Of a stretch of DNA of 64,000 nucleotides, positions 11,235-16,130 are shown piece by piece. The translations under genes were made by a program, and so were the position numbers. The notes beneath the pieces were generated by a model, which was not told where the DNA came from, ran no database searches, and was given only the letters and a program-made list of their open reading frames with translations. How positions within the stretch are numbered: the first letter of the stretch is position 1; each line of letters opens with the position of its first letter. Source of the DNA: Dictyostelium discoideum (Eukaryota); assembly GCA_000004695.1 (NCBI GenBank), contig CM000151.3:5472001-5536000 (forward strand). The letters are read 5' to 3'.

Positions 11235-14200
11235 TTATTTTGGAGTTACTGTTGTTGGAGTTAAAATATTATTATTATTATCAGATAATTTAAATGGTGT
11301 CGTTAAAATTTTTTGATTATTTTTAGATTTAAGAGGAATATTTAGAGTTTGTGATAACATGAAAGAAAGATCGGGAATTTTTGACATAACTTCATTAAAA
11401 GGGCCATTTGAAACTGGTTTATGATCAATTCCTAATAATGTTGAGGGATCAGTACTACCAAGATTTATAGCTTTACTTGGTGGTGTTGGTATATTATCAA
11501 TTGATCCAAATGGTGATGTTAAATTTGTTGTTGTTGTTGTTGTTGTTGGTGTTGTTGTATTTGTTGTAGTAGAAGTAGTGGTATTATTATTATTATTAGT
11601 TGTTGTTGTTGTTGTTGTTGTTGCTGTTGTTGAAGTATTAGTTAAATTATTTATTGAATTAAGTGGTGGTACATTTGGAATTGAAATATTTACTGCAGAT
11701 GCAGAAGATGGAGATAAAGGAATATTTGAAGAATTTAAAGAAACTGTTGTAATTGAACCACCTGAACCTGTTAATGTTGTTGATGAAATAGTTGGAGAAA
11801 TGCCAGTTGTTGGTGCTAATACTTGAGGTTTTAATGCTTGATGAATCTTTTCATGTTCCAATTGTTTAATCTAAAAATTTTAAAATTTATTAATAATAAT
11901 AATAATTAAAATATTTTAATATATATTTATTTTTTTATTTTATTCTATTCAATTTTATTATTTTTAAATACTTACTAAAATTTTAATTTCATTTGATAAA
12001 TGGAAAGATTCAGTAAATTGTTTTTCAATTAAAGTATTTTTTAAAATTAATGGTTCAGGTGTAACAGTGAATGATGATTGAATAGGTCTATTATAAATTG
12101 ATTTTTCTATTGATGATTGTTGTAATAAATCTTTAAGATTTATAATTTTATTTGATTTTTCATCACTTGACGAGTTGTTGTTGTTGTTGTTGTTGTTGTT
12201 GTTGTTGTTGTTGTTGTTGTTGTTGTTGTTGTTGTTGTTGTTGTTGTTGTTGTTGTTGTTGTTGTTATCGTTGGTAGTAGTACTACCAAAACAATTTTGA
12301 ACATTAATTAATTGATCAATATTCAATTTAATTTGATTAATATTTGATCTTTGTTGTGATAATGCTATAGAATTTGAAGAGGGTTGTTTTTGTTTTGGTT
12401 GAGGTTTTTGTGATGTACCAGCTAGTGCTGGAGCTAGATTTGGTGATGATCCAAAAGTATCAAAATCGTCAGTTGATTTTTCATCAAAATCACCAAATCC
12501 ATCATCTTCAATTGGTGAAGCTGGTAGTTGTTGTAGTTGTTGTTGTTGTTGTTGTTGTTGTTGTTGTTGTTGTTGTTGTTGTTGTTGTTGTTGTTGTTGT
12601 TGTTGTTGTTGTTGTTGTTGTTGTTGTTGTTGTTGTTGTTGTTGTTGTTGTTGTTGTTGTTGTTGTTGTAATGGAGCATTAGTAGTAATTCCTTGTTGTG
12701 GTAGTGGAGGTGGTTCATTAAATTCACCAAATTCACCAAATTCATCATCATTGTTGTTATTATTAAATTCACCAAAATCGCCAAAATCATCATTGCTATT
12801 GTTATCGGTAGTTTCTTTAAAATCACTAAACCCATCATTATAAATAGTTTGTTGTTGTGATGGTGGTGATGGTGGTGGTGGTGGTGGTGGTTGAGATAAT
12901 GGTGGTGTTAAAGATTTTTCTACTTTTTCACCATCGTCATCATCATCATCATTATTATTGTTATTATTATTATTATTTACATTTTTATTAAAATCTTGAT
13001 CATCACTATCGTCAAAATTAATGGCAGAAGTTTCTGGTTCATCTTTGAAATTAACATTTGATTTAAAATCTTCAAAACTATCATTAAAATCGTCTTTCTT
13101 TTTTGTTTCTTGGTTATCACTATTATTAATTCTATTATCATTTGATGATTTAGAAAATGAATTAAAATCATCATCATTATTATTATTATTATTATTATTA
13201 TTAATTTCTTTTACAGGTTCGCTAAAACTATTAAATTCATCATCATTTTCATTGAATGATTCATTTGATTTTTTAAAACTATTAAATTCATTAAATGGTT
13301 CATTATTTTGTTGTTCAATTTCTATTGTTGGTTTTATAGGTTCACTAGTAAAGTTATTAAATTCATCAAATGATTCATCATTATTTTCATTATCAAATGG
13401 TGGTGGTTTTGGCGATTGAAATGTAAAGTCAACTTCATTTTCATTAGTCTCTGATGATTTTGTTGTTGTTGTTGTTGTTGTTTTATTTGTTGGTTCATCA
13501 AAATTTCCAAATGTTTGATCATCATTTCCTGTTGTTGGTGTTGAAAAATTATCAAATTCATCATGATTGCCACTTGATTTTTGTTGTAATTGATGTTGTT
13601 CTGTAAAGTCAAATTCAAAATCTTTTTCATTTTCTTTAATTTCTTTTGTTTCTATATTTGAAGAAGTGAAATCAAAATCATTATTATTATTATTATTATT
13701 ATTATTATTATTATTTGTTTCTTTATCTAAAGATGGTTTTGATTCACTAAAATCACCAAAATCATCTTTATCATTAACTAGGCTTATTGGTGTTGAAAAA
13801 TCATCAAATCCATTATTATTATTATTATTATTATTATTATTATTATTATTATTATTATTATTATTATTTTGTGTCGAGAAATCAAAATTACCAGTTGTCA
13901 TATTTGTTGTTGCTGTTGAAAATGAATCAAAATCATTGTTTTCACTGTTTACATTATTTACAGTAGAGGATGAAAAACTAAAATCGCTATCTTTTTCTGT
14001 CACCTCTGGTGTATTATTTGTTTTTGTTGGATTGAATTCATCGTTATTTTTATTATTATCAGTTGTTGTTGTTGTTGGTGGGGTAGTAAAGCTTTCAAAC
14101 TCATCATTTTCATCATTTTTACTGTTATTGTTATCATTATTATCAGAGTTTGTTGGTAAAGTGAAGTTTTCAAATTGGACGTTATTATCATCAATAGATG

Positions 14201-16130
14201 GTTCTGTGGTTTGTTCAGTAAAGCTATTAAATTTATCGCTATCTTTTTTATCCGTGGTTGTTGGTACAGTAAAGCTTTCAATTTCATCCTTTTCATCTTT
14301 ATTATTATTATTATTATTGATAGTAGCTGTAGTGAAACTTTCAAATTGATCCTTCTCATCTTTATTACTATTGTTGTTATTATTATCACTATTGGTCGTA
14401 GGTGTAGTAAAACTTTCAAATTCATCATTGGTTGTTGTTGGTGTAGTAAAGCTTTCAAATTCACCCTTTTCATCTTTATTGCTATTGTTGCTGCTATTAT
14501 CATTATTGGTTATTATTGTTGTTGTAGTAAAGCTTTCAAATTCATCCTTTTCATCTTTACTACTATTGTTACTATTATCATTATTGGTTGTTGTTGTTGT
14601 TGTTGGTACAGTAAAGCTTTCAAATTCATCCTCATTATTATTATTATTATTATTATTATTATTATTATTATTATTATTATTATTATTATTATTATTATTA
14701 TTATTATTATTATTATTATTATTATTATTATTATTATTGATAGTAGCTGTAGTGAAACTTTCAAATTGATCCTTTTCATCTTTATTACTATTGTTGTTAT
14801 TATTATGATTGTTGATAGTAGTTGTAGTAAAACTTTCAAATTCATCATTGGTTGTTGTTGGTGTAGTAAAGCTTTCAAATTCATCATTGGTTGTTGTTGG
14901 TGTAGTAAAGCTTTCAAATTCATCCTTTTCATCTTTATTACTATTGTTGCTGCTATTATCATTATTAGTTATTGTTGTTGTTATTGTAGAAAAGCTTTCA
15001 AATTGATCCTTTTCATCTTTATTGCTATTGTTACTGCTATTATCATTATTGATTGTTGTTGTTGTTGTTGTTATTGGTGCAATAAAGCTTTCAAATTGAT
15101 CCTTTTCATCTTTATTGCTATTGGTGCTGCTATTATCATTATTGGTTGTTGTTGATGTTGTTGTTGGTGTTGTTGTTGTTGTTGTTGGTACAGTAAAGCT
15201 TTCAAATTCATCTTCATTATTATCATTATCATTATTGGATGTTGTAGTGAAACTTCCAAATTCTTTCTTTTCGTCATCATTTTCACCATTTTTGTTGCTG
15301 TTATCATCAATAGAGTTATTATCAATAGATGCCACAGGTGTAGTAAATCTTTCAAATTGATCTTTGGTAGCATTTGATGAAGTGAAATCAAAACCTACAT
15401 TATTGTTGTTTTCCACCGCTGATGTAGAAAAATTACCAAATTCATCATCTTCATTTGAAGTTGGGTTTGAGGTTGTAAAATCTATTGTATATTTATTATT
15501 TTTATTATTATTATTAACATTTTGTGAGGTTGAAAAATCACCAAATTCATCATCACTTTTTTCTTTTGGTTGTTGAGGATTTGAAAAATTTGAAAAATCA
15601 TCAAATGAATCATTATTATTAGAATTTGTATTTGAAAAATTTGAAAACTCACTATCACCATTATTGTTATTATTATTGTTGTTGTTGTTGTTGTTATCGC
15701 TATTAAATGTAATGGGTGATGATTTTTCAGATTCATTTAATGGGGGTGGTTCAGAGAAATCTCCAAATGAATCATCTTCATTTTGTTTTGATCGTGGTTG
15801 GTTTGATGTTGTCAAATTATTTGAACTAAAATCACCAAAATCTAAAAAATTACTTGTATTATTATTACTGCTATTGCTATTATTTTCTTTTCTTTGTGGT
15901 GTTGGTGAGCTAAATGGATCAAAATCATCAAATAATAAATTATTATTTTTACTGCTATCACTGTTTTGGTTATTACTATTATTATTATTGTTATTATTAC
16001 TATTATTATTATTATTATTATTATTATTATTATTATTATTATTATTATTATTATTATTATTATTATTATTGTTATCTGATGTACTACTTAAATCACCAAA
16101 GTTAAAATCAAAATCATTTGGTGTGCTCAT
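11235..16130 (-). CDS. Very large (~1600 aa) low-complexity acidic protein with about 40 copies of D/E-x-F-[GEN]-x-F motifs (DDFGDF, DEFESF, DQFESF, DEFNSF), poly-N, poly-Q and poly-T tracts. Two exons: 16130..11976, 11870..11235.
   Basis: ATG at 16130. The continuous ORF ends at the perfect donor tta|GTAAGT (11975). A 105 bp AT-rich intron ends at ttttAG (11872/11871). Exon 2 stays in frame (IKQLEHEKIHQALKPQV...) to the stop at 11235. The ORF-track start at 11861 is TTG, not ATG. Confidence 0.65.
14250..15250. repeat. Tandem DNA repeats (~90-150 bp units) inside the coding region of the large acidic gene. They encode NKDEKDQFESFTTPTTT-type protein repeats.
   Basis: Recurring gtagtaaagctttcaaattcatc... 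and gtagtgaaactttcaaattgatcc... blocks. Antisense ORFs in the track here are artefacts of these repeats. Confidence 0.8.

Follow-up and report, generated by a model that had tools for sequence, protein, structure and literature searches.

A Dictyostelium gene with an array of 46 acidic FxxF motifs encodes a candidate aftiphilin/Laa2-type AP-1 accessory protein

Introduction

AP-1 function depends on HEATR5 proteins and their cofactors. Laa2, Lft1, aftiphilin and CLBA1 each use three short helices (HR1-3), set apart by disordered linkers, to bind the HEATR5 C-terminus, and they contact AP-1 through FxxPhi motifs in acidic regions, on which the interaction of Laa2 with AP-1 depends (Marmorale et al. 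2024, PMC10798858). According to the same paper, clear aftiphilin homologues are confined to animals and clear Laa2 homologues to fungi (PMC10798858). The consensus for ligands of the AP-1 gamma-adaptin ear (gamma-ear) is DFxD[F/W], with micromolar affinities (PMC2172650). Here we describe a gene at positions 11235-16130 of a 64,000-nucleotide stretch of Dictyostelium discoideum chromosome 2 (GenBank assembly GCA_000004695.1, contig CM000151.3, positions 5,472,001 to 5,536,000 of the forward strand; hereafter the window), the product of which carries 46 FxxF sites followed by a conserved C-terminal module. We hold with moderate confidence, from sequence comparisons, that this gene encodes the D. 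discoideum aftiphilin/Laa2-type AP-1 accessory protein, that is, a HEATR5 cofactor.

AP-1 has been tied to contractile-vacuole formation in Dictyostelium (PMC3485558). Our literature searches found nothing specific on aftiphilin or HEATR5 in Dictyostelium or Amoebozoa, and no paper on the gene described here.

Results

A two-exon gene encodes a 1596-residue acidic protein

The locus encloses one minus-strand gene with two exons (Table 1) and a product of 1596 amino acids. The 1388-residue open reading frame (ORF) 16130..11964 (-) is real, with its start ATG at 16130. Codon 1385 is followed by a canonical GTAAGT donor (11975), which pairs with a TTTTTAG acceptor whose last base is 11871 and so links the ORF in frame to 11870..11235. 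The gene model is supported because the proteins of two dictyostelid orthologues (see below) run uninterrupted through the junction, because the gene of one of them, from Tieghemostelium lacteum, is intronless (one 3255-nucleotide exon), and because another D. discoideum assembly annotates a 1595-residue product with an identical 3' end and no Pfam family. Exact look-ups of the 1596-residue model and of the unspliced 1388-residue ORF found neither on record, and the protein is unannotated in the orthologues and in the second D. discoideum assembly. Plus-strand ORFs over the gene (e.g. 13666-14349 and 14175-15155) translate to poly-L/V/I/S and were rejected as antisense artefacts of codon repeats.

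The protein consists of 24% Asn, 13% Thr, 11% Ser, 15.5% Asp+Glu and 7.5% Phe, and contains no Trp. A Pfam scan of the protein in three pieces gave no family at E<=1.

The FxxF spacing is strongly and specifically enriched

An initial annotation of the locus had pointed to about 40 acidic Phe motifs. We counted 46 FxxF sites, far above the 8.75±2.77 found in 2000 shuffles of the sequence (maximum 19). The excess grows as the pattern is narrowed: 33 [DE]xFxxF sites are present (1.4 in shuffles), 25 [DEQ]F[GENDS][SDNE]F[ST] sites (0.11), nine [DE]FGx[FLIMVW] sites (0.06) and five matches to an ELM-type gamma-ear expression (LIG_AP_GAE_1; 0.02). DFxD[FW] is matched three times and [DE]Fx[DE][FW] seven times. 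Other Phe spacings are not enriched (FF 0, FxF 9 and FxxxF 4, each with ~8.7 expected). That enrichment is confined to the i/i+3 spacing argues for a real motif rather than for a high Phe content alone.

The sites mostly read D-[DE]-F-[EG]-[SD]-F-[ST], and the position-specific consensus is D-[ED]-F-[EG]-[SD]-F-[TS]-[TE]-P. Five to nine of them fit the strict gamma-ear consensus; they are concentrated at the N-terminus and within the conserved acidic core beside the tail. The DEFESF units satisfy no more than the broad definition of an acidic FxxPhi motif. All motifs fall in a region with no Pfam domain, and the N-terminal 1230 residues are judged disordered from their composition. Within the window, six other ORFs, one of them with 7.8% Phe, show no enrichment of the FxxF pattern, which, within the limits of this window, speaks against a motif density common to other proteins, the refuting condition named in the initial annotation. 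One ORF of the window, 23515-27588 (-), has a small excess (4 FxxF, 0.4 expected).

AP-2-type motifs are not enriched: DP[FW] and FxDxF occur once each, WxxF and NPF not at all, and all four counts lie at or below the shuffle expectation. The initial annotation's suggestion of FxDxF/DxF appendage-binding motifs is not supported. Readings of the array as AP-2 motifs, as FG-nucleoporin repeats, or as a product of pure chance or composition were rejected on the motif counts compared with shuffles and control ORFs.

Peptides of the D-x-F and acidic F-x-x-hydrophobic types are degenerate ligands, accepted by several ear and claw domains. The array might on this ground be a ligand for some other Phe-pocket module, such as the alpha ear of AP-2 or the shared beta-adaptin ear, TSET/TPLATE, the clathrin terminal domain, or ATG8/FIP200-type readers of LC3-interacting or FIP200-interacting regions (LIR/FIR). 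The single DPF, the single FxDxF and the lone clathrin-box-like match in the protein (LLGID) are compatible with this idea. We consider it quite improbable, given chance-level AP-2 motifs, the absence of Trp, a Phe at +3 that is atypical for LIR motifs, the links of the family to AP-1 cofactors described below, and the DFGDF/EFGEF core, which is the published gamma-ear consensus (PMC2172650).

We give almost no credence to a role as an FG-nucleoporin-like or other phase-separating, cohesive Phe-repeat protein. The many Phe residues in N/T/S/Q-rich disordered sequence, with FG in 12 of the 46 sites, recall such proteins, but the Phe contexts are strongly acidic (Asp or Glu at -2 in 33 of 46), and FxFG and GLFG patterns, nucleoporin domains and Pfam matches are all absent.

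Part of the array has probably expanded through DNA repeats

The middle of the array is encoded by tandem DNA repeats, which the initial annotation called near-perfect. The repeats are real, with more divergence than that term implies: TRF finds units of 81-93 nucleotides at 14435-15165 that are 72-87% matched, and a 179-nucleotide block at 14290-14468 recurs at 14710-14888 with 93% identity, the copies lying 420 nucleotides apart as a higher-order duplication. One 39-nucleotide unit (2.6 copies) is 98% matched. The units encode KDEKD[EQ]FESF[TS]T, in which the D[EQ]FESF core is constant and the linkers vary from 7 to 41 residues. One unit reads KDEKDEIESF (residues 615-620, ~14220-14240, minus strand); its first Phe is lost, and not all copies are maintained.

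The D. discoideum protein is ~500 residues longer than its orthologues (1596 residues vs 1084 in T. lacteum and 1048 in Synstelium polycarpum), and the DEFESF tandem array has no counterpart in the T. lacteum orthologue. Both facts fit a lineage-specific expansion and leave the recent expansion proposed in the initial annotation plausible. The DEFESF array would then represent growth of the ligand region in this lineage by duplication of DNA repeats.

A stronger version of this account holds that the whole array is neutral low-complexity expansion, the motif count reflecting tandem duplication in a repeat-prone, AT-rich genome. About one third of the sites (15) do lie in the tandem DNA array, where units are up to 93-98% identical, one copy has decayed to DEIESF, and D. 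discoideum genes are rich in poly-N/Q/T tracts. However, when residues 301-700 are left out, 31 FxxF sites remain where 6.3 are expected, a ~5-fold enrichment; orthologues that have no DEFESF array retain 27-33 sites of identical spacing between diverged linkers; and within the array itself the core stays constant while the linkers do not. Neutral expansion is thus a very improbable explanation.

Two dictyostelid orthologues keep the motif while the scaffold diverges

An exhaustive HMMER scan of 1.84 billion representative sequences with the C-terminal 343 residues as query identified orthologues in T. lacteum (P0050; KYQ93155.1, 'hypothetical protein DLAC_05787', 1084 residues, E 2.4e-26) and in S. 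polycarpum (P0051; EukProt model, 1048 residues, E 1.6e-12). They contain 33 and 27 FxxF sites, respectively, with ~5-6 expected, and neither has Trp. The motifs differ in flavour, with DDFGDFGEF and DTFGDF in T. lacteum and AFDEFDSFTTS and TDFASF in S. polycarpum, and the linkers between them are unrelated among the orthologues. Retention of a motif and its multiplicity in a diverged scaffold is the signature of a functional short-linear-motif array. Taken with the motif counts and the published consensus, the orthologue arrays support the initial annotation in its central claim of a disordered acidic scaffold of gamma-ear/GAE-type ligands (GAE, gamma-adaptin ear).

A word-indexed homology search with the C-terminus gave no matches, a result that is uninformative because the index also misses the T. 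lacteum orthologue present in its collection. The T. lacteum locus has no neighbours in common with the window.

The C-terminal tail is a conserved module of short helices

Alignments show that the last ~500 residues contain blocks invariant across the three dictyostelid species (Table 1). The most N-terminal is an acidic core, invariant in the orthologues, with the consensus D[DE]FGDFGEF ... [ND][DE]F[GD]xFG[ED]FNxPPP ... DDGFGDF; in D. discoideum it includes DDEFGEFGEF, and it is the stretch that matches the start of the Pfam family LAA2. An HR1-like helix follows (consensus Q[IV][KR]xx[IM]xxL[LI]xxxN[CY]F), in which INQIKLNIDQLINVQNCFG is colinear with LLNRLERIFEACFPS of aftiphilin, a weak match (P 0.35). 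The HR2-like helix has the consensus [LI][EK]D[LI]L[KQ]xSx[IF][ED]KS[IL]Y and aligns to 'Q[IV][LM]V.ESSRD.Y' of LAA2 in a hidden Markov model (HMM) alignment. The HR3-like block spans the intron and reads FxxxPxxPxxxK[NE][TS]xIEKQFxxS ... LI[KQ]KxE[HQ]E[KR]xxQxLKP, with IEKQF and LKP invariant; it aligns weakly to 'W.RS.VRR..L.S.GV' of LAA2.

Two blocks lie further downstream. The first has the consensus KxINLGxxxxSTLLG[ILV]D, and in it KAINLGSTDPSTLLGIDH appears by eye to resemble GSTLLNLDFFGPV of aftiphilin. The second is the end block, PF[ND][EQ]VM[SA]KIPDL[ST]FMLxxTLxIPxK in dictyostelids, and contains the last conserved segment, IPDLSFMLSQTLNIP.

AlphaFold2 (AF2), run on the C-terminal 343 residues with the three-sequence alignment, predicted a mostly disordered chain with no globular fold (mean pLDDT 46.8) and short helices at the conserved blocks (pLDDT up to 74-77); those of the HR3-like block lie at query positions 114-122 and 127-142 (pLDDT 67-77). 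No relative with a solved structure turned up when PDB sequences were searched with profiles of aftiphilin and of the dictyostelid proteins. The protein is thus built of ~1230 disordered N/T/S/D/E-rich residues, a conserved acidic core, and a tail of four to five short helices with low-complexity linkers in which IPDLSFMLSQTLNIP comes last. Short helices in a disordered chain are the organisation given for Laa2, Lft1 and aftiphilin (PMC10798858). The initial annotation, which had detected no folded domain, is right in so far as there is no Pfam domain and AF2 confidence in the C-terminal 343 residues is low; its implication that the protein is a motif scaffold and nothing else is contradicted by the helical module.

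The end block recurs at the C-terminus of animal aftiphilins

We retrieved and aligned aftiphilin C-termini for profile-profile comparison. The LPDLSFMxAKVLMFP segment of aftiphilin aligns with IPDLSFMLSQTLNIP in hhalign at P 1.7e-3 with the single D. discoideum sequence, 7e-4 with the three-species profile and 5.5e-4 in a trimmed comparison, and BLASTP of the end block vs aftiphilin gave E 0.007. The extreme C-terminal block of aftiphilin, LSEEAxxVIxxLPDLSFMxAKVLMFP, shares nine positions with its dictyostelid counterpart ([ILV]PDL[ST]FM, L+12 and P+15). In more general form, [ILV]P[DN]L[ST][FY]M-x4-L-x2-P sits 9-47 residues from the C-terminus in the dictyostelids (47 in D. discoideum) and in every aftiphilin fetched; it is captured by neither of the Pfam models PF15045 (Clathrin_bdg) and PF17104 (YBL010C_LAA2). 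This short shared motif is suggestive rather than proof of a relationship. When the acidic core is included, hhalign vs aftiphilin reaches E 6.6e-6 with a probability of 85% over 127 columns, which cover the acidic clusters, the 'Q..L..RLE..F...FP' helix and 'v.sL..LL'.

The end motif is also present in a diatom protein from a metagenome-assembled genome (P0068) and in several metagenome eukaryote proteins (P0072, P0073, P0080 and P0112), all with 8-16 acidic repeats of the DDFGDF type (FG[DS]F). These proteins also have a helix of the 'ARSVFGDVF' type, 'LRDLLVS' and a C-terminal [ILV]PDLS[FY]M-x4-L-x2-P. Compared with aftiphilin, the protist tails show the end block and the HR1/'LL' block in the same order (P 1.1e-3 and 0.23). 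They differ from the D. discoideum protein in their length of 450-600 residues; they carry no annotation, their gene structures are uncertain, and several are apparently truncated by intron read-through. Many further protist relatives (P0065, P0066, P0071, P0077, P0082, P0090, P0098 and P0111) end in hydrophobic junk a few residues after 'DLLVS/VLVS', as though gene callers had run on into an intron that occupies a conserved site.

LAA2 is the Pfam family closest to the dictyostelid tails

The S. polycarpum orthologue matches PF17104 with E 3.1e-5 and 24.6 bits (gathering cut-off 24.7). The match extends over residues 763-908 of this protein, which take in the acidic core and everything up to the IEKQF block, and over positions 2-141 of the 292-position profile. 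For the C-terminal segments of all three dictyostelids LAA2 is the top Pfam family (best E of the three 5.8e-6; E 0.0062 and 17.1 bits in D. discoideum), and only one further family appears at E<=10, in one member. A search of 5.8 billion proteins with the dictyostelid profile returned weak hits only. Twelve of these are Pfam-annotated; eight of the twelve carry PF17104 and come from chytrids, basidiomycetes and an ascomycete; another is an eel aftiphilin. In an ad hoc LAA2 HMM, 'ESSRD.Y' and 'W.RS.VRR..L.S.GV' are the counterparts of the HR2- and HR3-like blocks.

Evidence against homology and the case for convergence

Homology to aftiphilin and Laa2 is suggestive from these comparisons, and several results weigh against it. 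Once the acidic motifs are set aside, it is not statistically secure. The score of the HR-only LAA2 HMM was matched by 665 of 1000 shuffles for D. discoideum, 121 of 1000 for T. lacteum and 9 of 1000 for S. polycarpum, and hhalign put LAA2 vs the dictyostelid tails minus their acidic core at P 0.19. For scale, the published similarity between Laa2 and aftiphilin comes out at no better than P 0.015 by this test. All the dictyostelid proteins stay below the PF17104 gathering score, and the match is confined to the first half of that profile. Minus the acidic clusters, only the end block stands out vs aftiphilin, the HR1/'LL' block being colinear at P 0.35. With a vertebrate aftiphilin HMM run on the six-frame translated window, exon 2 was the best domain at an E of only 0.11-0.27, which is not significant. 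PF15045, which covers the HR2-HR3 region of aftiphilin, gave no match at E<=1 or E<=10 in any of the three dictyostelids; the aftiphilins used as positive control matched it at 85 and 25 bits. Membership of PF15045 or PF17104 is consequently not demonstrated, the first giving no match and the second a borderline one over half of the profile. The protist proteins were found via shared 5-mers, so that their PDLSF core partly reflects ascertainment; this bias does not extend to L+12, P+15, the position near the terminus or the arrays further upstream. Finally, only the above-mentioned five to nine of 46 sites match the strict gamma-ear consensus, leaving DEFESF as a putative ligand variant.

Short linear motifs evolve convergently. 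The D. discoideum protein could accordingly be an AP-1/GAE-ear scaffold that acquired its motifs by convergence and has neither homology to aftiphilin or Laa2 nor a role as HEATR5 cofactor, with a tail that binds some other partner, for instance clathrin, a SNARE, a lipid-binding partner or a gamma-synergin-like protein. The acidic FGDF clusters, which give most of the profile score vs both LAA2 and aftiphilin, and the lack of any PF15045 match are what such a history would leave. It would not so readily account for a 15-residue end motif with nine conserved positions at the same extreme C-terminal place in aftiphilins, for the recovery of LAA2, alone among Pfam families, with all three orthologues, or for blocks that succeed one another (acidic core, then helix, 'L..LL', ..., and end motif) as they do in aftiphilin. 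We therefore regard convergence as unlikely and favour the assignment to the aftiphilin/Laa2 type.

Coordinates and neighbouring genes

Table 1. Features of the D. discoideum FxxF-array gene. Coordinates are positions in the window; residues refer to the 1596-residue product.
Feature	Coordinates	Strand	Evidence
Exon 1, codons 1-1385, from ATG at 16130	11976..16130	-	ORF list, sequence, translation
Intron, 105 nucleotides, GTAAGT...TTTTTAG	11871..11975	-	sequence; orthologues colinear across junction
Exon 2, codons 1386-1596 and stop at 11235-11237	11235..11870	-	sequence, translation
Residues 1-300, N-terminal disordered region, 12 FxxF including canonical DFGDF, DSFGDF, DEFGDF, DEFGNF; one DPF; poly-N tract	15231..16130	-	
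Residues 301-700, tandem array, 15 FxxF, mostly KDEKD[EQ]FESF[TS]T units of 13-47 residues	14031..15230	-	TRF, repeat search, unit list
Residues 701-1230, third motif region, 19 FxxF (DFDSF, DDFGDF, DEFDNF, DEFNSF etc.), not tandem DNA copies	12441..14030	-	
Conserved acidic core: DDFGDFGEF..DDEFGEFGEFNEPPP (1114-1142), poly-Q (1155-1198), DDGFGDF..DDFDTFG (1209-1227)	12450..12791	-	alignments, Pfam
First conserved helix INQIKLNIDQLINVQNCFG, residues 1264-1282, HR1-like	12285..12341	-	alignment; AF2 helix at query 11-24, pLDDT ~74
Second conserved helix IINLKDLLQQSSIEKSIY, residues 1329-1346, HR2-like	12093..12146	-	alignment; AF2 helices at query 79-93
Third conserved block FTVTPEPLILKNTLIEKQFTESFHLSNEIKIL / IKQLEHEKIHQALKP, residues 1354-1400, intron-spanning, HR3-like	11826..12071	-	alignment, AF2
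Conserved block KAINLGSTDPSTLLGIDH, residues 1518-1535, contains LLGID	11421..11474	-	alignment
C-terminal end motif PFNEVMSKIPDLSFMLSQTLNIPLK, residues 1542-1566	11328..11402	-	hhalign, BLASTP, motif table; AF2 helices at query 289-308

Exact look-up of neighbouring ORFs identified DDB_G0275377, S-adenosylmethionine decarboxylase, DDB_G0275569 and DDB_G0275575. DDB_G0275377 (3784-4722, plus strand) has a Mit_KHE1 domain (PF10173, E 4e-35). Between it and the motif gene lies a small SNARE-domain gene at ~6919-7520 (+), a position taken from the coordinate offset to the other D. discoideum assembly (L001 13136-13737). Two ORFs (10191-10523 and 10683-10952, plus strand) probably belong to a single gene of two exons that carries a 2OG-Fe(II) oxygenase domain (PF13640) and is convergent with the 3' end of the motif gene; the other assembly annotates it as a 221-residue product (L001 16359-17120).

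At greater distance, a 908-residue ORF (50392-53118, plus strand) has an N-terminal ArfGap domain (PF01412, E 1e-22); it is a membrane-traffic gene ~35 kb away, with no evidence of a functional link. A 657-residue ORF (42058-44031, minus strand) contains MutS domains II, III and IV and is a MutS-family mismatch-repair homologue, probably one exon of a larger gene. The 385-residue ORF at 46282-47439 (+) matches S-adenosylmethionine decarboxylase; other strain assemblies have exactly 385 residues and the AX4 RefSeq entry 379, a difference indicating that its start codon or a small intron is modelled differently between annotations. ORFs 23515-27588 (-; 1357 residues, 19% Asp+Glu) and 34678-37743 (+; 1021 residues, 7.8% Phe) match no Pfam family at E<=0.001.

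Discussion

The D. discoideum protein resembles aftiphilin (AFTPH), an animal AP-1 accessory protein that forms a complex with p200 (HEATR5B) and gamma-synergin, in being a disordered acidic protein with multiple gamma-ear motifs (e.g. EFGDF and DDFADF in aftiphilins P0003, P0013 and P0081) and a C-terminal region of short helices, with LPDLSFM-x4-L-x2-P ~20-30 residues from the aftiphilin C-terminus. It differs in its number of FxxF sites (46 vs 6 in one full-length-like aftiphilin checked), in giving no PF15045 match, and in a similarity over the HR1-3 region that is statistically weak. Aftiphilin reportedly has WxxF-acidic motifs for the alpha-ear of AP-2, as Burman et al. are said to have described in 2005; the D. 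discoideum protein contains no Trp and hence no such motifs.

With Laa2, which in fungi connects the HEATR5 protein Laa1 to AP-1, it shares an acidic cluster (DDFDDF...DDGFGDFGDF, N-terminal in Laa2) followed by short helices, and the HR2- and HR3-like blocks align (ESS.D..Y and [WF]..S.[IV]..[QE][FH]..S). The conserved C-terminal half of fungal LAA2 (positions ~142-292) is without counterpart in the dictyostelid alignments, and the fungal proteins are shorter (340-480 residues), have two to three motifs and have no PDLSFM end motif. Gamma-synergin and epsinR likewise carry DFxD[F/W] in disordered regions and bind the gamma-appendage with micromolar affinity (PMC2172650, PMC2169493); unlike them, the Dictyostelium protein has no detectable EH or ENTH domain.

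As an aftiphilin/Laa2-type accessory protein, it may work as follows. Each acidic FxxF peptide would be a low-affinity ligand for the AP-1 gamma-adaptin ear, and for any other GAE-type ear, and the dozens of copies would provide avidity and hold several AP-1 complexes at once. The helical tail probably binds HEATR5: it would dock on the C-terminal part of this protein (homologous to p200/Laa1), in the way that HR1-3 serve Laa2, Lft1 and aftiphilin. The complex would stabilise AP-1 on trans-Golgi network membranes and on those of endosomes, and would support its recruitment there.

More tentatively, we propose that the end motif and the upstream acidic FGDF array may mark one ancient aftiphilin family represented in animals, Amoebozoa and stramenopiles, from which fungal Laa2 would be derived. 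HEATR5/AP-1 cofactors would then date from near the last eukaryotic common ancestor, and the 46-site D. discoideum member could be a multivalent AP-1-clustering scaffold.

The finding introduces no new principle; it would be a somewhat unexpected extension of the AP-1/HEATR5 cofactor family beyond opisthokonts. It would draw attention to a conserved, uncharacterised C-terminal motif that is also present in aftiphilins, and the three species, with their 27, 33 and 46 motif copies, would form a natural series for relating ligand valency to adaptor recruitment. Even if the link to aftiphilin and Laa2 were only one of convergence, the protein would remain the strongest candidate for a major ligand of the gamma-ear in Dictyostelium. 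If the link is true, D. discoideum would offer a genetically tractable non-opisthokont model of the AP-1/HEATR5 module, with a cofactor that combines Laa2-like and aftiphilin-like features.

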